From Candidatus Woesebacteria bacterium (GTDB lineage: Bacteria; Patescibacteriota; Microgenomatia; UBA8517): a DNA stretch of 64,000 bases. This document shows, in pieces, positions 6,149 to 59,693 of this stretch (the stretch's first letter is position 1; every line of letters begins with the position of its first letter). The DNA lies in the NCBI GenBank assembly GCA_016432525.1, contig CP066693.1, forward strand, positions 785,639 through 849,638, in the 5' to 3' direction. The notes under the pieces were generated by a model. The model saw nothing but the letters and a program-made list of their open reading frames with translations. It ran no database searches and had not been told where the DNA came from. A program made the position numbers and the translations under genes.

Positions 6149-6682
6149 TTATTTGTTTTGGTTTTGTCCTAGCATTTTTCTAAACATCTTTGCCTGTCTA
6201 ATCGCATCTCCTAAAGCATTATGGGTATACGGAAGTTCTGGATCAAAATGTTTTTCCGTTTGTGCTTCACTCCACTCTTTTCCCGTAATTCCCATGCCGT
6301 AAGACTTGATATCGATTCCAGCATGACCAAAAGGGTTAAACCCTAAATAATAAATAAAATAATAATTTACAAAAGCCCAATCAAACATGCCGTTAAATCC
6401 CACAAACCTTGGTGTTTTATCGCCACTATTTGTTTGAATCCAATCATTAAACTTTCTCATTGCGGTTTCTGGATCTAGTCCATTTTTTTCAAGATCACTC
6501 AAATTTAGTCTGCACATTTCTAAAGCTGCTGGAATATATTCTTTACTTGTTGGCTTTAATTCGGCGTAATAGCATTTTTCTAAATCCTCAACTAAACAAG
6601 CACCTATTGATAGCATTGAATATTTTACAGGAATCGGCCCTGAAGCTTCTATGTCTACTGAGACTAAGGATTCTTTTGACAT
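6149..6682 (-). CDS. DEDDh-family 3'-5' exonuclease
   Basis: Exo I motif SVDIEASGP and Exo III motif HNALGDAIRQAK. Confidence 0.7.
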   Translation of the reverse strand: MSKESLVSVDIEASGPIPVKYSMLSIGACLVEDLEKCYYAELKPTSKEYIPAALEMCRLNLSDLEKNGLDPETAMRKFNDWIQTNSGDKTPRFVGFNGMFDWAFVNYYFIYYLGFNPFGHAGIDIKSYGMGITGKEWSEAQTEKHFDPELPYTHNALGDAIRQAKMFRKMLGQNQNK

Positions 6683-6918
6683 TGAAATAGTATATCAAAG
6701 TAGTTCAAATAATTATTAATAATTAACTGGTGAAGCTAGATTTGGAGTTTGTGAAGAAACAATTCTTCCTAAAATATCCCTTTCGAGAATTAACCGTGCC
6801 TTTCTTGGGTTAGGTAGAATAAAAATCGAACTAAATTCTATTTTTGGAATAGTAGCCTGTGGATTCCTATAGAAAGATGTGAGCTCATACTGGAATTATA
6901 TCAGAATCAGACTAGGGG

Positions 6919-7845
6919 TTATTCCAAACCTAAACTCTCTCCCTTGATAATTGTCTGTCTATCTTTATCTCTCCACTTATACATCCCTTCTCCACTCCAA
7001 CCTATCTTTCTTGATATAAGAACATCACGCGAATATCCCAAGTTCCCAAAACGTAAAGTACCTGCATCAAGTTTCTTAATATAAAGTCGTTCTTCCGATA
7101 AGTCACAGATCAGCGGATTTTTCTTTATTGTTGCCATTAATCTATCAACATCTTTTTTTGATTCCTGAAGAAGACTATCCATAGCCTGAGGATTGTTCCA
7201 AGCATCAAGCTCAGTTTTAGAACGAATGTGACGCGTCTCAAAAAAATTAGATCTAAGTGTTTTTCGATCCAAAGTGATAAACATTTCGCCTCCCACAGCA
7301 AGATGTCTATAAAGTTTTTTGATTGCCCTCAACGGATCCGCAAGATGTAAGATACACATATTCGATATAATAAGATCAAATTCCTGAGATCTAAAGGATG
7401 TTTCTTGAATATCACCATCAATCAGCTTTATTTCCATTTGTTTATCCTCTGACTTTTGTGCTTCATCTCTAATATCTCCCAAATTGATTTCACACAACAA
7501 GAGGTTGTCTAATATACCATCTGTTTGCGCTTGCTTACCTATGTCTCTAAGAAATCGGCCTTTCCCGCAACCTACATCAAGAACTCTTACTTTTCCATTG
7601 TCGGCTCTAGACTTAATATTTTGATAAAGACCATCGTGACCCTCACCAACCAAAGATTGATCGTAGTCACTTAAACCACCATCAATATAAAAATAACCCA
7701 ATTCGTCAATGTGATTTACCCCATTGTCGCCCCATCTGACTACTTTTGATCTACAGATGGTAGCTGCACGAGCTTTCTCTGCATCCTCTTTCTCAATCGC
7801 ACGTAATTCAGAAAAACGTAAATATTCTCTGCCCATGACACGCAT
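6919..7845 (-). CDS. class I SAM-dependent methyltransferase
   Basis: Motif I VLDVGCGKGRF and a downstream acidic motif DLIISN. Confidence 0.7.
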   Translation of the reverse strand: MRVMGREYLRFSELRAIEKEDAEKARAATICRSKVVRWGDNGVNHIDELGYFYIDGGLSDYDQSLVGEGHDGLYQNIKSRADNGKVRVLDVGCGKGRFLRDIGKQAQTDGILDNLLLCEINLGDIRDEAQKSEDKQMEIKLIDGDIQETSFRSQEFDLIISNMCILHLADPLRAIKKLYRHLAVGGEMFITLDRKTLRSNFFETRHIRSKTELDAWNNPQAMDSLLQESKKDVDRLMATIKKNPLICDLSEERLYIKKLDAGTLRFGNLGYSRDVLISRKIGWSGEGMYKWRDKDRQTIIKGESLGLE

Positions 7846-8590: not shown

Positions 8591-9247
8591 ATGTCTCCCA
8601 AATCCGCAAATCATCATCATAAATTTGTAATTCTTTTTGCTACCTCCACCCTAGCTCTAAGTATCTTGATAGTCTTAGTTGCAAACACATTTGCAAAAGA
8701 AAGGCTCAAGTGGCAGCAACAAGTCAATCGTAGAAAATGTGATGCTGAAGGCGAAGCCATAATCAATGTTCACCAACGAGTTGTCAAAAGTGTAGATTCA
8801 GGGCAAGCTGGAAATTACTGGGCATTTGATAATTACGATAGAAATATAAAAGTTTGGAAAATAGATGAAACTACTAATGAATTTTGTGCCACTGTCACAT
8901 ACAATGGCGACTTTGACGCAATTGCAGGTCAAAGAAGTCCTGGAAATACAGGAATCTTAACTGGTAAAGAAGACGGAAGATTTGATGGTGGATATAGAAT
9001 GCATATAATAGGAACGATGCAAATCGATCCTAAATTTAACATCACAAAAGGATCTATCGGAACAGCTTATTACAACTGTGACATAAACGGAAACTGTCCA
9101 GGAGCATTTGATTGGACAACAAAGTATTTCAACACTACTGCAACAGGCTTTTCATCAACACTTGAATGGTGGGGCTGGCAATATAGAGCTCCCAAAAACA
9201 AAGTTTGGGTCAACTCAATTGACGGTAATTCCGGAGATGTAATTTAA
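8591..9247 (+). CDS. hypothetical secreted/membrane-anchored protein
   Basis: N-terminal transmembrane helix and Cys-containing extracellular region. No recognisable family. Confidence 0.35.
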   Translation: MSPKSANHHHKFVILFATSTLALSILIVLVANTFAKERLKWQQQVNRRKCDAEGEAIINVHQRVVKSVDSGQAGNYWAFDNYDRNIKVWKIDETTNEFCATVTYNGDFDAIAGQRSPGNTGILTGKEDGRFDGGYRMHIIGTMQIDPKFNITKGSIGTAYYNCDINGNCPGAFDWTTKYFNTTATGFSSTLEWWGWQYRAPKNKVWVNSIDGNSGDVI

Positions 9248-9601
9248 ATGTCACCTTCAAGTATTGGTGGATATTTCCTCTTAATTCTACTTGCAGTTTT
9301 AGCTCCTACTCCAATCCCAATTCCACTAGATGAAATAGTTATTGCATTAATCGCAAAGGGATTTAATCCAATTTTTGTGATAGCTGTTGCTCTTATAGGT
9401 GATCTGATCGGCACTTTTTTTATCTTCAAGGTGGGTCGTAAAAGTCGTGATTTTATTGACGAATATCACAAAAAAAGAAAAAGAAAAGATTATGCTTTTG
9501 CAGACAAGCTTTTCAGAAAGTATGGTAAATACGCCCTACTTTTAAGCGGTATTCCATTTCTTGGAGACGCACTAATTTTTATAGCAGGGTTTATCGTCTA
9601 A
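9248..9601 (+). CDS. small membrane protein, DedA/YqaA-like
   Basis: Three predicted transmembrane segments with a G-rich loop. Resembles the short YqaA/DedA-type fold. Confidence 0.35.
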   Translation: MSPSSIGGYFLLILLAVLAPTPIPIPLDEIVIALIAKGFNPIFVIAVALIGDLIGTFFIFKVGRKSRDFIDEYHKKRKRKDYAFADKLFRKYGKYALLLSGIPFLGDALIFIAGFIV

Positions 9602-9745
9602 AAATGTCAGATTTTTTCATTTATTTCATATTAGGAAAATTACTTTGGTATACTTTTATTTCTTTTGGAATTATTAATTTTCTTTTACACTACAGAGGAT
9701 TTCATAGATTTAGAAAATTTTATTAAAGCTGTATAAACCACTAAA

Positions 9746-47342: not shown

Positions 47343-48729
47343 CTACTAAAGTATAGCCCATTTTGATTAACTGATCACGGATTTTGTCAGCGGCCTCAAA
47401 ATTGCCTTCTTTTCGAAAATTTTCTCGCTCTTCTAAAAGCTTTTGAGTATTAACTGTTACTTCCTTTTTCCCCACATTTAAATTCGCATTAATACAAAGC
47501 CCTAAAATCTCATCAAAATACATAAGTAAATCGTATTTATCAGAATGTGGGATATTACTTTTCAAAGCTTTCCACACTATCGCCAAAGCCTTTGGAGTAT
47601 TAAAATCATCATTCAAAAAAGAGCTAAAATCGGATCTAAACTGATCAATCTTTGTAAGCTTCTCATCTGAAAGTGTATTTCTGGTTTCCTCTCCCGTTTC
47701 TTTGGTTACACTCGCAATTTTGTAAAGCTTACTCAAAGCAGTTTCAGATGCCTTCAAGCTTTCCCATGTAAAATTTAACGGATCCCGATAATGTGTAGTC
47801 AAATATAAATATCGCAGCGCCAAAGGGTTAATTTCATGATTTTTAATATCATCTATTGTATAAAGGTTGCCCAAAGATTTACTCATCTTTTTGCCATCAA
47901 CCATTAAAAATTCATGATGAATAAAGTAATTAGCAAAAGGCTTTCCAGTTGCCGCCTCACTTTGTGCAATTTCGTTTGTGTGATGAGTTGGGATATGATC
48001 AATTCCGCCAGTATGAATATCAAAAGTTTCGCCTAAATATTTCATGCTCATGGCAGAACATTCAATATGCCAACCCGGGAATCCCTCTCCCCAAGGAGAT
48101 ACCCATCTCATGGTATGATTTGCAAATCTACCCACCGTAAAAATCCAAAGAGCAAAATCCGCAGGGTGTTTTTTGGCTGGGTCTGATACGACATCTTCTC
48201 TTACCGCCGTCTTTAAATCATCCAAATTCTGTCCTGAAAGTTTTGTGTAGTTAGCAAATTTTGAAATATCAAAATAAATTCCTTGTTCGCTCTGATAAGT
48301 AAACCCGCGCGCTTCTAATTTCTTTATTAAATCAATTTGCGCATCGATATGCTCCGTTGCCCGACAAACTATGTCAGCACGTTTTATGTTTAAGGCATCA
48401 TTTGAAATAAAAAATTGTTCTTCAAAAAACTTTGCAACTTCCCATACACTTTTCCCCAAAAGTTTTGCTCCCTTTTCCATTTTATCCTCTCCTTCATCAG
48501 CGTCAGATGTCAAATGCCCAACATCAGTTATGTTCATAACATGCTTTACCTGAAATCCATCTAAAGCCAACACTCGTTTAATTATGTCATCTCCAACATA
48601 ACGTCTTAAATGTCCAATGTGTGCATATCCATAAACAGTTGGTCCACAAGAATACATTCCTACACTTGGAGAATTAATAGGTTTGAACTCCTCAATTGTT
48701 CGAGTTAAGGAATTGTAAAATTTAAGCAC
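47329..48729 (-). CDS. cysS: cysteine--tRNA ligase
   Basis: MYSCGPTVYGYAHIGH (HIGH), KMSKSLGN, and zinc ligands. Probable GTG start at 48729, preceded by GGAGG. The track ATG at 48768 would overlap the upstream gene by 47 nt and has no RBS. Confidence 0.9.
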   Translation of the reverse strand: MLKFYNSLTRTIEEFKPINSPSVGMYSCGPTVYGYAHIGHLRRYVGDDIIKRVLALDGFQVKHVMNITDVGHLTSDADEGEDKMEKGAKLLGKSVWEVAKFFEEQFFISNDALNIKRADIVCRATEHIDAQIDLIKKLEARGFTYQSEQGIYFDISKFANYTKLSGQNLDDLKTAVREDVVSDPAKKHPADFALWIFTVGRFANHTMRWVSPWGEGFPGWHIECSAMSMKYLGETFDIHTGGIDHIPTHHTNEIAQSEAATGKPFANYFIHHEFLMVDGKKMSKSLGNLYTIDDIKNHEINPLALRYLYLTTHYRDPLNFTWESLKASETALSKLYKIASVTKETGEETRNTLSDEKLTKIDQFRSDFSSFLNDDFNTPKALAIVWKALKSNIPHSDKYDLLMYFDEILGLCINANLNVGKKEVTVNTQKLLEERENFRKEGNFEAADKIRDQLIKMGYTLVDDKV

Positions 48730-49195
48730 CTCCGCCTCCTTTTCTTTCTTTAGAAGTTGCTCGATCATACATACTTTTAACTGCTTTTTTCATTCCTCCA
48801 AATGGCCCTTTTGGCTTTTCATTAGTTGTAATTTGTGTCTGCTCTTTTGGTTGTATTTCCATTACTTGAGTTTGTATCTGGCTCCATTGTTCTTTTTGTT
48901 GAAGCCGCTTTTGCTGAGCTTCTAATAGCGCTTGATCTAGTTCAGCTTTCAATTCTTGATATCTCTTAACTCTATATTGTTCATCTTGCATTTTTTGAAT
49001 TTCAATTTGTTTATCCTGATCTTTTGTAGCACCTTCTTGTTGTAAATTTTCCATACCTGTAGTTTGTCTAACAACATCTTGACCCATGGATTTTGTGGTT
49101 TCAAAAGAAGTTTTAGCAACAGCCCTTGCAGCTTTAATAGCCTGATCTCGAGCAGAGCTTGCAACTTTTGTTGGAGATTGGAATATCGTAGCCAT
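48722..49195 (-). CDS. hypothetical coiled-coil protein with a C-terminal GGGGA tail
   Basis: Gln/Lys/Glu-rich heptad-like sequence. The track start at 49213 is a TTG; the ATG at 49195 sits 6 nt after a TATACT -10 box. The last codons (GGA GGC GGA GGT) form the cysS RBS. Confidence 0.4.
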   Translation of the reverse strand: MATIFQSPTKVASSARDQAIKAARAVAKTSFETTKSMGQDVVRQTTGMENLQQEGATKDQDKQIEIQKMQDEQYRVKRYQELKAELDQALLEAQQKRLQQKEQWSQIQTQVMEIQPKEQTQITTNEKPKGPFGGMKKAVKSMYDRATSKERKGGGGA

Positions 49196-49258
49196 AACAC
49201 TAGTATAGACCAAGTGAGCCTCAGGCTCAATTCCAGCCTCAAAATTATCCCATAATAC

Positions 49259-49287
49259 TTGACTTTTGACTTGAAAAATGCTATAAT
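49259..49287 (+). promoter_or_regulatory. consensus-like sigma70 promoter TTGACT-17-TATAAT
   Basis: TTGACT at 49259-49264 and TATAAT at 49282-49287 with a 17-nt spacer. Predicted TSS about 49294. Confidence 0.6.
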
Positions 49288-49344
49288 TCTTTTACATTAA
49301 ATTAGCCTTAATTCAAGGCTAGCACATTTAAGCAAATTCTCTTT

Positions 49345-49401
49345 AATTACCAACCTCTTTAGGCATGACCCTCGTGCTTAACGAGGTTGGTAATTTTTTT
49401 A
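49345..49401 (+). terminator. leader hairpin plus U-tract (attenuator or small-RNA terminator) between the promoter and the 49421 ORF
   Basis: Perfect 12-bp stem ATTACCAACCTC / GAGGTTGGTAAT with a 25-nt loop, followed by TTTTTTT. AAGGAG RBS and ATG lie 20 nt downstream. Confidence 0.55.
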
Positions 49402-49420
49402 TCTCACAAGGAGATTAAAG

Positions 49421-49699
49421 ATGTTCAAAGGAAATGGCAGAAAGGCTGATGTCGATACCGTCTTTCAAATGCTTGAATTCTCTTTTAGCCAAAAGCCATT
49501 CGAAATTGTCGGTGGGCTCGCCCACATCAACATGAAGTTAATGGTGAATCCAACCGCCGAGTTCGGCAGATTGGAATTTGGCCACACAGAGAGAAGGTCT
49601 TATCCGGCAATCCTGATCAGGGATAATAACCCTCGGGAGTTTGCTAGGAAAGAAGCCATTCAAGTTTATTGTGAAGGCGGTGTTTGGCACGCCACGTAG
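49421..49699 (+). CDS. hypothetical small protein (92 aa) in a GC-rich island
   Basis: AAGGAG RBS 6 nt upstream of the ATG. Codons are conspicuously GC-rich (CTC, GCC, CCG, CGG, ACG) relative to the neighbours. No family recognised; this could instead be part of an RNA element. Confidence 0.3.
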   Translation: MFKGNGRKADVDTVFQMLEFSFSQKPFEIVGGLAHINMKLMVNPTAEFGRLEFGHTERRSYPAILIRDNNPREFARKEAIQVYCEGGVWHAT

Positions 49700-49770
49700 C
49701 CAATCAGGCCTGGGGTGAGAAATCATTTTAGATTTCATCATATTAACACTCACCCCGCCTGCCGTTCATC

Positions 49771-50379
49771 TTAAATCTCTCGCCTTCCTTCAATCGCAGA
49801 AGTCAGAGTAATAGGGTCAGCATACCCTAAATCCGCTCCAGTAGGAATTCCCATCCCCAGTCTTGTAATTTTCAAATGATGTCCATTATTTGGGTTTTGT
49901 TCATGAAGTTTTTTGGTTATATACATAGAAGTTGCCTCCCCCTCCATCGTCGGGTTTGTAGCAATAATAATTTCATTGGCATCGTGCGCTCTCTTAAACA
50001 AATCCTCCATATAAAGCTCATCTGGCCCAATATTTTCAAGTGGATTAATTACTCCATGCAAAACATGATAAACACCGAAAAACTTTGCAGTTTTTTCAAA
50101 AACCAAAATGTCCAATGGCTCCTCAATTACCATTATGGTTTTCTTGTCTCTTTTTATATCTGAACACACCAAACACGGGTCCGCCTCAGAAACATTTTTA
50201 CAAACAGAGCAAAGTATTGTGTTTTTCTTAAGATTTGAAAGCGACTGAGCAAAATCATCGAGCTGACTTTGTGGAACACGAAGTAAATAAAAAGTAAGCC
50301 TCTCAGCAGTTTTAGGACCAATTCCAGGAAGTCTTTGGAAAGACTCAATTAAAGAATTGATAGGCTTGGCAATTTTCAT
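49771..50379 (-). CDS. recR: recombination protein RecR
   Basis: HhH (LPGIGPKTAERL), C4 zinc finger (CSVC...CLVC), and Toprim. Confidence 0.9.
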   Translation of the reverse strand: MKIAKPINSLIESFQRLPGIGPKTAERLTFYLLRVPQSQLDDFAQSLSNLKKNTILCSVCKNVSEADPCLVCSDIKRDKKTIMVIEEPLDILVFEKTAKFFGVYHVLHGVINPLENIGPDELYMEDLFKRAHDANEIIIATNPTMEGEATSMYITKKLHEQNPNNGHHLKITRLGMGIPTGADLGYADPITLTSAIEGRREI

Positions 50380-50397
50380 AATTTAGATTATACATAC

Positions 50398-50679
50398 TCA
50401 GAAGCCTTTAAGAAGACCTGATAATCCCCCGCCTTCATCCATCATTTTCTTCGCAGCTTTTTTCTGAACTTCCTTCATAGCCCTGTTTATTGCTTCAATC
50501 AAATCATCATTTTCATCTCCATCAATTATAATTTTTTCAACTTTCTGCTCCCCATTAACAGTCACTTCAATCCCTCTATATTCGGTAGTAGTTTTAATCT
50601 CGCGAAGCTTTTTCTGAAGATCCATCGCTTGCGATCTCATTTTCCTTAACTCATTAAGCTGTTGTACTTTGTCAAACAT
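50398..50679 (-). CDS. ybaB: YbaB/EbfC nucleoid-associated protein
   Basis: MFDKVQQLNELRKMRSQAMDLQKKL...EVTVNGEQKVEKIIID. Start placed at the internal ATG to fit the family N-terminus. Confidence 0.85.
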   Translation of the reverse strand: MFDKVQQLNELRKMRSQAMDLQKKLREIKTTTEYRGIEVTVNGEQKVEKIIIDGDENDDLIEAINRAMKEVQKKAAKKMMDEGGGLSGLLKGF

Positions 50680-52114
50680 TATTAAATATTTCCTTAGCAG
50701 CTTCAATTATATCTGCCTCGTGGGTTGTAGTCAAAGTCTCTTTTGGTTTTTCTGCTATCACAGGTTTTCTTTCAATAAGTTCGTAAAAAACCTGAATCAA
50801 GTCTCCCGTCAAAGAAGAAACTGCATCCTCTAAAATCTTTTTACTGGAAATTGTCTCTAATTTTTCTTTGTGAAATCTAAAAGGCACACCAATTTTTAGA
50901 ATAACTCCATCAAAAGATAAAGGTTGAGAGGTTCTTAAAAGAGCCTCAATCGAAACATTTTTAGATCTAATTTCCATTAAAATTTGATTCCATAAATCTG
51001 TGTCAATTGATTTTATCTGAATTTTTTCACTTTTTTCAGTTTTTTGAGTTTTTTTTTCTTCTGTTTTTGTCCCACACCATTCAAAAACCGCCATTTCCAA
51101 AGGCACTTGTGAAATATACGATTGCCCTATTTTTAATTTAGCTTTAATTAAAAGATTAGTGAGATTTGCTATTTCATCAATTTGAAAACTTTTTAATTCT
51201 TCTTCTTTCAAAACTCCACTTTTAGAAAGAAAACCTTTATGGAGTTGTCCCAAAACTTCATCTATAAAACTTTTTATATTTCCCCCAGAATTAACAAAAT
51301 CTTCAATAAATAAAACTGCCTCCCGATTTTCTTTTTGCGATAAAATTTCCAAAAAGTTCAAAACCTTACCAGAGGAAATATGTGCTGTTACTTTTTCAGC
51401 ATCTTTTAAAGAGATTTTCTTTTTGTTAAATGAAACCTGCTCCAAAATCTTAACTGCGTCTCGGAAAGATCCATCTGAAAGTTTGTAGATCAGATCAACT
51501 ACTCCTTCCTCAACTTTAATTTTTTCTCCTTTCATAACTCGCACCAGTTGTCTTTCCACTTCTTCCTTTTTAGCTTTTTCAAAGACTAGATTAAAAGTTC
51601 GAGAAATAATAGTAGAAGGCAACTTTTCTGGATTAGTTGTTGCAAGAATAAAAATTGCATGAGCAGGTGGCTCCTCCAAAGTTTTTAAGAAAGCATTTGC
51701 TGCCTCAACAGTCAACATGTGGGCCTCATCGATTATGTAAACTTTTTTTCTTAAATTTACAGGGGAAAGCATAATGCTTTCATTCAAAGATCTTATGTCG
51801 TCTATTCCCCTATGGGACGCAGCATCCATTTCAATTACATCCAAACTTGCCCCATTGGTAATGGAGATACAAGATTCACACTTATTACACGGCTCGATAA
51901 GCCCTGGTCCACGAAGCTTTTGCGAAGTCGACTCGCAATTCACAATTTTTGCCAAAATCCTGGCAGCAGAAGTTTTTCCAGTACCTTTCAATCCAGAAAA
52001 CAAAAATGCATGAGGAATATCACCTGTTGAAATTAGAGACTTTAACGACTCTCTGACGCTTTCTAAATCAAGCTCTTCAATTGTCTGGGGACGATACTTT
52101 AAATAAAGTGTCAT
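50672..52114 (-). CDS. dnaX: DNA polymerase III subunit gamma/tau
   Basis: Walker A GLKGTGKTS, Zn module CESTSQ...CNKCESC, and DEAH-like box. Conserved dnaX-ybaB-recR order. Confidence 0.9.
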   Translation of the reverse strand: MTLYLKYRPQTIEELDLESVRESLKSLISTGDIPHAFLFSGLKGTGKTSAARILAKIVNCESTSQKLRGPGLIEPCNKCESCISITNGASLDVIEMDAASHRGIDDIRSLNESIMLSPVNLRKKVYIIDEAHMLTVEAANAFLKTLEEPPAHAIFILATTNPEKLPSTIISRTFNLVFEKAKKEEVERQLVRVMKGEKIKVEEGVVDLIYKLSDGSFRDAVKILEQVSFNKKKISLKDAEKVTAHISSGKVLNFLEILSQKENREAVLFIEDFVNSGGNIKSFIDEVLGQLHKGFLSKSGVLKEEELKSFQIDEIANLTNLLIKAKLKIGQSYISQVPLEMAVFEWCGTKTEEKKTQKTEKSEKIQIKSIDTDLWNQILMEIRSKNVSIEALLRTSQPLSFDGVILKIGVPFRFHKEKLETISSKKILEDAVSSLTGDLIQVFYELIERKPVIAEKPKETLTTTHEADIIEAAKEIFNNV

Positions 52115-53253: not shown

Positions 53254-53282
53254 AGTATACCAAATTACTTATAGGATGTCAA
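53254..53282 (-). promoter_or_regulatory. near-consensus sigma70 promoter TTGACA-17-TATACT immediately after the HIT stop codon
   Basis: Minus-strand TTGACA at 53282-53277 and TATACT at 53259-53254, spacer 17. Would drive a roughly 210-nt non-coding leader or small RNA before yqeY. Confidence 0.5.
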
Positions 53283-59177: not shown

Positions 59178-59213
59178 ATGCTTATTTTAACACAGATTGA
59201 AGCTAAAGGAAAT

Positions 59214-59258
59214 AAAAAAGCCCTGAAGGTATATTTTTGTTTTGTTACCCTCAGGGCT
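59214..59258 (-). terminator. intrinsic terminator (minus strand) 37 nt upstream of the folD start
   Basis: Minus-strand AGCCCTGAGGG-(18 nt loop)-CCTTCAGGGCT followed by UUUUUU. Confidence 0.6.
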
Positions 59259-59658
59259 GAAGACATTGATGGCGGCAGGAAAGAGTTACAAGTTGGCTGG
59301 CGGCCCACATGCGCTTCTCAACCACACTTGGTTCTTTCCTGCTTGCTGGCTTCACATCCAATAGCGATTCGCGACTCGCTATACCAGCTTGAATTCATGG
59401 TGTACGTCAAAGCTAGATTACTTCGCAAGAAGTAAATGCTTCCGTCAAGCACCGGGCCAGTAGCCGCCGGGCCAATCTAGCTGAAACACGAGAATCTATC
59501 CCGTGGACGGAGGAAACATCCGGGCAAAGCCTCGAGCGAAGCCCAAGTAGCCATACCACAAGCTCGGTTTTTTGTGGACCGCTCGCTTCCGGCGATAACC
59601 TTCACCGGTAAGGGAGCGATCCACAACCGCGAAAAACATCAAAGTGCAAATTTAAAGT
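59214..59658 (-). ncRNA. unclassified GC-rich structured RNA candidate (about 445 nt) between glyA and folD
   Basis: No ORF of 60 aa or more on the minus strand, and only a spurious 85-aa ORF on the plus strand. Bounded by a TTGACA-17-TATTAT promoter and an intrinsic terminator. Nested inverted repeats are present (TGGACCGCTC...GAGCGATCCA, CAGGAAAGA...TCTTTCCTG, TAGCGA...TCGCTA). GC content is far above the flanks. Confidence 0.4.
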
Positions 59659-59664
59659 ATGAGT

Positions 59665-59693
59665 ATAATATCACACCCAATTTATTCTGTCAA
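59665..59693 (-). promoter_or_regulatory. sigma70 promoter TTGACA-17-TGnTATTAT (minus strand)
   Basis: Minus-strand TTGACA at 59693-59688, 17-nt spacer ending in TG (extended -10), and TATTAT at 59670-59665. Confidence 0.55.

Follow-up and report, generated by a model that had tools for sequence, protein, structure and literature searches.

The ~550-nt element that separates recR from the next gene of its cluster in Candidatus Woesebacteria bacterium is best read, at a probability of about 0.6, as a horizontally acquired, moron-like autonomous cassette in which a leader terminator constitutively throttles the 92-codon open reading frame (ORF) orf92 and frees an RNA of ~105 nt. It lies in a 64-kb stretch of contig CP066693.1, referred to here as the window, from this member of the Candidate Phyla Radiation (CPR)/Patescibacteria, whose genome has a GC content of 35.6%. 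The element occupies the 576-nt interval between the recR stop codon and the start codon of cc157, a gene for a coiled-coil protein of 157 aa, and its orientation is opposite to that of the gene cluster. The features described in the original prediction, made from the sequence alone, are all present at or within a few bases of where it had placed them: a promoter, a leader hairpin followed by seven U residues (U7), an AAGGAG ribosome-binding site and the ORF, as well as a second hairpin after the orf92 stop and, on the opposite strand, a palindrome and a TATACT box.

According to the proposed mechanism, the cassette would have been inserted at the junction of recR and the coiled-coil gene, pointing against the transcription of the cluster. 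Most transcripts from its strong promoter would stop near position 49400 and yield an abundant leader RNA of ~105 nt. Only the read-through minority would carry orf92, and protein output would be low despite a very strong foreign promoter. The insertion would also have parted the coiled-coil and cysS genes from recR. These genes are now probably served by a leaderless start from a -10 box, and the -35 element of cc157 (TTGAGC) would now lie within a palindrome beside the cassette. In the one homologue whose surroundings are visible, the module sits in an unrelated chromosomal context.

The insertion becomes apparent when the recR loci of 80 GTDB species representatives and 80 JGI metagenome loci are compared with the window; in both collections, the closest available relative shares 71% RecR identity. 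The dnaX-ybaB-recR-(coiled-coil gene)-cysS synteny is conserved in 75 species representatives. The gap between the recR stop and the following ORF of ≥100 aa on the same strand has a median of 8 nt (5-95%: -3 to 95) in the 134 relatives with enough sequence, versus 576 nt here, and a single locus exceeds 300 nt. Neither DNA of the element nor an orf92 homologue was found in the recR loci of the 160 relatives. The cc157 gene is homologous to the recR-adjacent gene of relatives (phmmer E = 3e-10 to L005), and the N-termini of the two proteins align, which places the extra DNA between the recR stop and the coiled-coil gene start.

The composition of the ORF points in the same direction. Its GC content at third codon positions (GC3) is 0.53 versus 0.26±0.04 (maximum 0.38) in 60 long ORFs of the window, six standard deviations above their mean, which bears out the GC-rich codon usage noted earlier. 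Overall GC reaches 0.50 at 49500-49700 over a background of ~0.35, and the composition of orf92 matches the 44-49% GC of the contigs that carry its homologues. Because of this deviating GC3, of a long leader and strong Shine-Dalgarno (SD) sequence atypical of the host, and of the absence of the element from relatives, a lineage-specific horizontal acquisition is supported by the sequence comparisons, as the original prediction had suspected in calling the element foreign or recently acquired.

The traces that such an insertion may have left are slight. Two copies of the direct repeat TAACACT, at 49195-49201 and 49744-49750, bracket 542 bp, the left copy overlapping the first base of the cc157 ATG (49195-49193, minus strand). 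The chance of such a repeat is ~0.05 by the author's estimate, with ~±30 nt of boundary uncertainty, and its interpretation as a target-site duplication is only suggestive. No terminal inverted repeats and no transposase ORF were found at the element, which is single-copy in the window and does not have the make-up of an insertion sequence or a miniature inverted-repeat transposable element. No relatives of the element were found in IMG/VR, among the INPHARED phages or in the PLSDB plasmids. An ATGAAC on the minus strand (49764-49769), 1 nt after the recR stop, recalls the ATGAAY with which relatives start the coiled-coil gene within 1-15 nt, and might weakly suggest a vestige of the ancestral gene start. 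Counting against a vestige, ATGAAC has no -10 box and the N-terminus of cc157 itself aligns with those of relatives. In about one third of the Woesebacteria relatives (e.g. L006, L009, L019, L040, L041 and L057), additional genes amounting to 0.7-3.7 kb lie between the coiled-coil gene and cysS, which marks a neighborhood of recurrent gene gain, though that junction differs from the one occupied in the window.

The orf92 gene (49421-49699, plus strand) encodes 92 aa and is preceded by an AAGGAG ribosome-binding site (49408-49413), which 7 nt separate from the ATG at 49421. Its product is identical to the NCBI entry 'hypothetical protein HYS03_00215 [Candidatus Woesebacteria bacterium]', and a word-indexed search of 5.8 billion proteins returned orf92 itself as the sole match. 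Comparison by phmmer with 1.84 billion cluster representatives revealed two homologues, P0002 (88 aa, 41% identity, E = 9e-9) and P0003 (92 aa, 37% identity, E = 9e-7). A profile of the three members, searched against the 5.8 billion proteins, recovered no members beyond the same three, and no further ones were found in JGI metagenome contigs, IMG/VR, or phage or plasmid collections. The 1191-aa repeat protein P0004 (E = 1e-4, summed) was rejected as a relative. Its match is confined to the short motif P[FY]R.xGGHADVNLEF (core P[FY]..GG.A..N), present in four repeats and corresponding to residues 25-40 of the orf92 family, and was judged spurious.

Aligned over their full length, the three proteins have 28 invariant positions, including a CExG[IV]W[YH]A motif at the C-terminus. 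The homologues retain this motif as well as the reading frame, the start and the length, while the DNA is only 41-62% identical. In pairwise comparisons, 57-69% of the residues that agree are written in different codons, with saturated dS and a dN of 0.3-0.8, a pattern that reflects selection on the protein and not on the RNA. As judged from these alignments, orf92 is a true protein gene of a very rare family. The possibility, left open in the original prediction, that an RNA element had been taken for an ORF is contradicted by homologous proteins of equal length, written in different codons at saturated dS. Nor did the ORF turn out to belong to an ordinary conserved family: no known domain was found in the three-member family, none of the three has a match in Pfam, PHROGs, PADLOC or NCBIfam, the PDB contains no sequence match, and two homologues are all that the searches produced.

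Structure prediction gives a tentative outline of the protein. AlphaFold2, run with the three-sequence alignment, yielded a poor model of Orf92 (pLDDT 55) and a moderately confident one of P0003 (pLDDT 79, pTM 0.72), whose run also gave four much weaker models. The predicted topology of the P0003 model is beta-alpha-alpha-beta-beta-beta-beta, for which Foldseek found no significant fold match in the PDB or BFVD. By hand count of residues Orf92 is approximately neutral in charge, and no obvious signal peptide or membrane segment was seen. The protein of the module is read as cytoplasmic, alpha+beta and ~90 aa long. One may guess at a dosage-sensitive, accessory role of the conflict or addiction type, because the family is rare, is accessory in both visible contexts, and has its near-perfect promoter throttled in the window copy.

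The two homologous loci define which parts of the cassette are shared. P0003 is encoded on L083, a 15.9-kb Logan contig, between a histidine-phosphatase gene and hrcA, and P0002 on L084, a 1-kb metagenome contig. The LepA protein of L083 shares 73% identity with a protein labelled 'Patescibacteria group bacterium', which assigns this contig to the Patescibacteria. GC contents are 44% for L083 and 49% for L084, and in L083 the homologue gene matches the local GC and forms no compositional island. In its relatives L165 and L167, lepA is followed by hrcA-grpE-dnaK without the homologue gene, so that the orf92 family is accessory in the L083 lineage too. Both homologues have a promoter of the form CCCATAG-N-CTTGAC-17-TGTTATAAT, with 12/12 and 11/12 matches and each with the TG of an extended -10; the promoter-leader motif reads CCCATAGNCTTGAC...TGTTATAAT. 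Their leaders are 123 nt (L083) and 148 nt (L084) long and end in a GGAG-type SD, and their upstream regions are significantly alike (z = 9.3). From these comparisons, the conserved module spans ~450 bp, beginning ~10 nt upstream of the -35 element and ending with the stop codon (positions 49251-49699 of the window).

The leaders themselves diverge. No significant conservation was found when the window leader was aligned with those of L083 and L084, and the latter two fold no better than shuffled sequences (z ~0) and contain no terminator-like site. By eye, the L083 and L084 leaders have in common a long-range helix of 11 bp (AGGCNGUUGUU / AACAGNGNCUU) with a U-rich stretch after it, as judged from these two sequences only. 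The strong leader hairpin is therefore a peculiarity of the window copy. Homologous loci had been proposed as the place to check both promoter and hairpin: the promoter is there, and the leader hairpin is missing. A separate hairpin, AATTACCACGCAC..GTGTGGTAAT, occurs in L083 at 9659-9685, ~170 nt upstream of the homologue promoter. It starts and ends with the same bases as the leader hairpin of the window (AATTACCA...TGGTAATT) and is the only other such case in 84 loci. No other copies of a AATTACCA...TGGTAAT hairpin were found in the window or the loci, and this one case may be a coincidence or a cassette-associated hairpin element. L083 also carries a free-standing LAGLIDADG homing-endonuclease-like ORF (6400-7197) that overlaps the lepA start and is missing in L165, L166 and L167. 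This ORF and the histidine-phosphatase gene (9026-9604) are both specific to L083, which indicates that the lepA-hrcA interval is variable in that lineage.

The promoter of the cassette (49251-49287, plus strand, including a CCCATAA motif) is of the sigma-70 type and close to consensus; it consists of a -35 TTGACT at 49259-49264, a 17-nt spacer and TGcTATAAT at 49279-49287 (-10 at 49282-49287), for 11/12 matches plus the extended -10 TG. Promoter sites with at least 11/12 matches number only four in the whole 64 kb on both strands. Both this promoter and the hairpin downstream of it are clearly above chance level. The 5′ leader is predicted to start near 49294 and to extend over ~127 nt (49294-49420, plus strand), and comprises a small hairpin (49303-49321), an unpaired linker, the terminator-like hairpin, a U-run and the AAGGAG SD.

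The terminator-like hairpin with its T-run occupies 49345-49400 (plus strand). Its 24-nt arms (49345-49368 and 49372-49395) are 88% complementary, enclose a 3-nt loop and pair perfectly over the outer 13 bp, forming the longest inverted repeat of the window. An initial terminator scan missed it owing to the stem and loop limits of that scan. The RNA of the plus strand is more stable than that of the minus strand (-30.7 vs -23.8 kcal/mol) because of G·U pairs. The T-run (49394-49400) comprises seven T, two of which can pair within the stem, and the minus strand has no U-run. The leader up to the end of the T-run (49294-49400) folds at -40.3 kcal/mol (z = -8.4). Folded by minimum free energy at nine lengths, the growing transcript makes the small 5′ hairpin, leaves the linker unpaired and keeps the 5′ arm of the terminator single-stranded until the 3′ arm has been transcribed. 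A stable, G+C-containing hairpin is thus followed by a U-run on the transcribed strand, as in intrinsic terminators, and an intrinsic terminator between promoter and ORF is credible on sequence grounds. It may be a secondary change that tamed a strong foreign promoter firing head-on into a host operon, a possibility raised by the homologues, which are without the hairpin.

Several other roles can be envisaged for this leader. Regulated attenuation had been suggested in the original prediction, and a conditional attenuator would let a ligand, a protein (perhaps Orf92) or the translation of a leader peptide decide whether the terminator forms. The terminator lies 26 nt before the start codon, the hairpin at 49303-49321 with its 23-nt unpaired linker could bind a factor, and conserved blocks occur in the long leaders of the homologues, as does the 11-bp long-range helix ahead of a U-rich stretch. 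Yet the minimum-free-energy folds at the nine transcript lengths contain no antiterminator competing for the 5′ arm of the terminator, and Rfam gives no match even at E up to 1-5. The sole upstream ORF (17 codons, 49364-49417) was rejected as a leader peptide: it begins within the hairpin, has no SD, and the hairpin is not conserved. The terminator between promoter and ORF is credible and regulated attenuation no more than plausible, as antiterminator fold, Rfam family and homologue hairpin are all missing. Conditional control is unlikely, and constitutive throttling is the simpler reading. Equally doubtful is the proposal that the ~105-nt RNA is itself the functional product, either as a trans-acting small RNA or as an RNA antitoxin able to neutralise Orf92, the ratio of RNA to protein being set by the terminator. 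Its strength lies in the order of promoter, RNA, palindromic terminator and ORF, which is the layout of type III toxin-antitoxin (TA) loci (PMC3401426), in a promoter among the four strongest of the window whose unopposed terminator would produce a large excess of RNA, and in the occurrence of an isolated mobile accessory unit in two genomes, like many addiction modules. The leader nevertheless holds no tandem repeats: Tandem Repeats Finder (minimum score 30) detected no array at 49200-49800, and a repeat search showed just scattered two-copy repeats of 10-18 nt, with nothing tandem in the leader. Moreover, PADLOC and Pfam give no match to ToxN, CptN or TenpN, 92 aa is about half the usual toxin size, the homologous loci are without a leader terminator, and the leader sequence is not conserved.

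A hairpin of this length could also act in the 5′ untranslated region (5′-UTR) as a processing or stability element, either an RNase III substrate or a protective stem-loop, with orf92 highly expressed. The stem is far longer than in typical intrinsic terminators, A·U pairs adjoin the U-run, duplexes of 23 bp are typical of RNase III substrates, and the SD is strong and well spaced. Against such a role, a run of seven T follows directly, the hairpin lies ~50 nt from the 5′ end and not at it, and the plus-strand-specific G·U pairs together with the U-run suit a terminator, which makes a processing element quite unlikely. That the GC-rich stretch is a structured non-coding RNA with an accidental 92-codon ORF is largely refuted. 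In AT-rich genomes a GC-rich island is often an RNA gene, region 49401-49775 folds at z = -5.1 on the plus strand vs -3.3 on the minus strand, and the homologue mRNAs likewise exceed shuffled controls in structure (z = -3.1 and -6.2). However, the coding sequence alone reaches only z = -3.3, conservation is at the level of the protein, Rfam gives no match, and the predicted mRNA folds differ among the three loci, where an RNA gene would have a structure in common. The unit might instead be ancestral to the lineage and lost elsewhere, as no relative closer than ~70% RecR identity was among those compared. This is very improbable in light of a GC3 six standard deviations from the host mean, expression signals unlike those of the host, the tight recR-coiled-coil junction of relatives (134 loci) and the location of the homologues elsewhere in other Patescibacteria.

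Searches for known RNAs gave no indication of an RNA gene. Rfam cmscan of 48000-51000 at E up to 1 returned just chance hairpins (mir-BHRF1-1 and rli32) far under their gathering scores, nothing in the whole window reached a gathering score, and neither L083 nor L084 had a match at E up to 5. ARAGORN detected no tRNA or tmRNA in the region. Two resemblances noticed by eye were dismissed as chance, as Infernal supports neither: an RNase P-like string in orf92 (ACAGAGAGAAGGUCUUAUCCGG) and a hammerhead-like CUGAUGAG..CGAAA at 593-640 of L084. The latter sequence (GUCUGAUGAGGCCCGGGAAGUUCGGGCCGAAAGAGAAAC), located downstream of the homologue, has the look of a hammerhead core with a stem II, its stems I and III being poor; the Rfam hammerhead models find nothing in it at E up to 5, and the likeness is probably accidental. 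At the other end of the element, a 3′ hairpin (49705-49761) separates the convergent orf92 and recR genes. It is built from an outer stem CAGGC/GCCTG and an inner stem GGGGTGAG (49712-49719) / CTCACCCC (49749-49756), and folds at -23.3 kcal/mol (z = -4.1). It has no U-run on either strand and is therefore not a canonical terminator.

Phage morons are autonomous promoter-gene-terminator units of atypical composition located between adjacent genes, as in lambdoid and HK97 phages. Like them, the unit comprises one small gene that has a promoter of its own and is flanked by hairpins, set between genes that are adjacent in relatives; both differ in composition from their surroundings, and the gene is probably accessory in both. 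The unit differs in residing in a chromosomal housekeeping operon and not a prophage, in having no phage or plasmid relative, and in placing its strongest terminator upstream of the ORF while the 3′ hairpin is without a U-run. It also resembles the small ORFans of CPR/Patescibacteria, which are short, lack Pfam domains and are patchily distributed in reduced genomes. Here, however, explicit expression signals are kept in three very diverged copies, and transfer between genomes that differ in GC is clearly indicated. With attenuator and riboswitch leaders the locus shares a terminator between promoter and ribosome-binding site, which would generate a short leader RNA and a read-through mRNA, but not an aptamer or Rfam family, an antiterminator helix, a plausible leader peptide or conservation in homologues.

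The nearest parallel for the order of the parts is found in the type III TA systems ToxIN, CptIN and TenpIN, in which a constitutive promoter, an RNA and a palindromic terminator precede the toxin gene (Blower et al. 2012, PMC3401426). The locus has the corresponding promoter (11/12 plus TG) and a hairpin with T-run ending 26 nt before the ATG. In both cases an untranslated RNA and a terminator stand directly before a protein gene, the terminator would set the ratio of RNA to mRNA, and the unit is compact and mobile. The locus nonetheless fails two defining features, tandem repeats and a toxin of the ToxN/AbiQ, CptN or TenpN families; in addition, Orf92 is about half the size of these toxins and the homologous loci have no terminator. 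By analogy, the module could be a new sort of minimal mobile addiction or conflict unit of Patescibacteria, a repeat-less type III-like pair of a leader RNA and a ~90-aa protein that is able to hop into an operon, where it would supply or preserve a promoter for the genes downstream. Such a reading is improbable.

Several observations weigh against the throttled-cassette reading itself. The base of the leader hairpin is A·U-rich and its stem is unusually long for an intrinsic terminator, as an RNase III substrate or stability element might be. The hairpin is missing from both homologues, which places it outside the conserved module and makes an incidental role possible. Beyond the promoter consensus (CCCATAATACTTGACTTTT), the upstream similarity between the window and the homologues is not significant (z = 1.6-2.5). 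Neither an integrase nor terminal inverted repeats were found at the element, just the 7-nt direct repeat (p ~0.05), and with the nearest relatives at ~70% RecR identity the boundaries and the date of the insertion cannot be fixed. The transcription start site, the efficiency of termination and translation are all predicted from sequence.

The genomes of CPR/Patescibacteria, tiny and syntenic, are thought to take part in little gene exchange. The cassette would offer a concrete example of how such small genomes take up and tame foreign genes, being a cleanly delimited, single-gene unit that still has the composition and expression signals of its donor inside a housekeeping operon. It would also illustrate how an operon can be split while its downstream genes go on with a host-style leaderless start. 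The orf92 family is a candidate for a role in conflict or addiction, within a group where such systems are poorly known. On the throttled-cassette reading, the locus is an acquired ORFan cassette with a leader terminator, whose gene is accessory. It is no new kind of system and does not overturn current understanding.

The genes around the cassette all lie on the minus strand, in the order dnaX (52114-50672), ybaB (50706-50398), recR (50379-49771), cc157 (most likely ATG at 49195, end at 48722) and cysS (48768-47329). Host genes appear to begin mainly in a leaderless manner. Of the 72 long ORFs of the window, 35 have a TANNNT box at a distance of 4-16 nt ahead of their first ATG, vs 17% of random positions, and only 12 are preceded by an SD motif (GGAG, GAGG or AGGA). 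Examples of such boxes are found at recR, where TATAAT lies 8 nt before the gene's own ATG, at cc157 and at the gene for a 220-aa protein after cysS. Two further near-consensus promoters occur on the minus strand of this region. A TTGACT-17-TATAAT (50734-50706) inside the 3′ end of dnaX, just upstream of ybaB, suggests that ybaB-recR transcription is separate from that of dnaX, and a TTGACA-17-TATACT with TG starts at 53282.

The candidate promoter of cc157 and cysS (49202-49230, minus strand) pairs a -35 TTGAGC (49230-49225) with a -10 TATACT (49207-49202) across 17 nt. It scores 9/12, which alone is at chance level (5 such sites found vs 3.9 expected). The TATACT box ends 7 nt before the cc157 ATG (49195), a placement that implies a leaderless cc157 mRNA. 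The box plausibly serves the coiled-coil and cysS genes, as had been proposed from the outset, because it follows the general gene-start pattern of the genome, a comparable box preceding about half of the window genes. A perfect 6-1-6 palindrome, GAGCCTCAGGCTC (49216-49228), lies between the two divergent promoters and overlaps the minus-strand -35. It could be an operator; the regions upstream of the homologues in L083 and L084 have no conserved counterpart.

Elsewhere in the window, a second GC-rich island (GC up to 0.54) occupies 59212-59693 on the minus strand, in the 530-nt gap between glyA and folD. It begins with an 11/12 extended -10 promoter, TTGACA-17-TATTAT (-35 at 59693), continues for ~430 nt of GC-rich sequence and ends in a strong terminator, GCCCTGAGGG..CCTTCAGGGC + TTTTTTATTT (~59257-59212). 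No Rfam match was found for it at E up to 10, ARAGORN detected no tmRNA, and nothing similar was found in 167 loci. The island folds at -178.8 kcal/mol (z = -7.2) and is a candidate for an unclassified structured RNA of ~430 nt.

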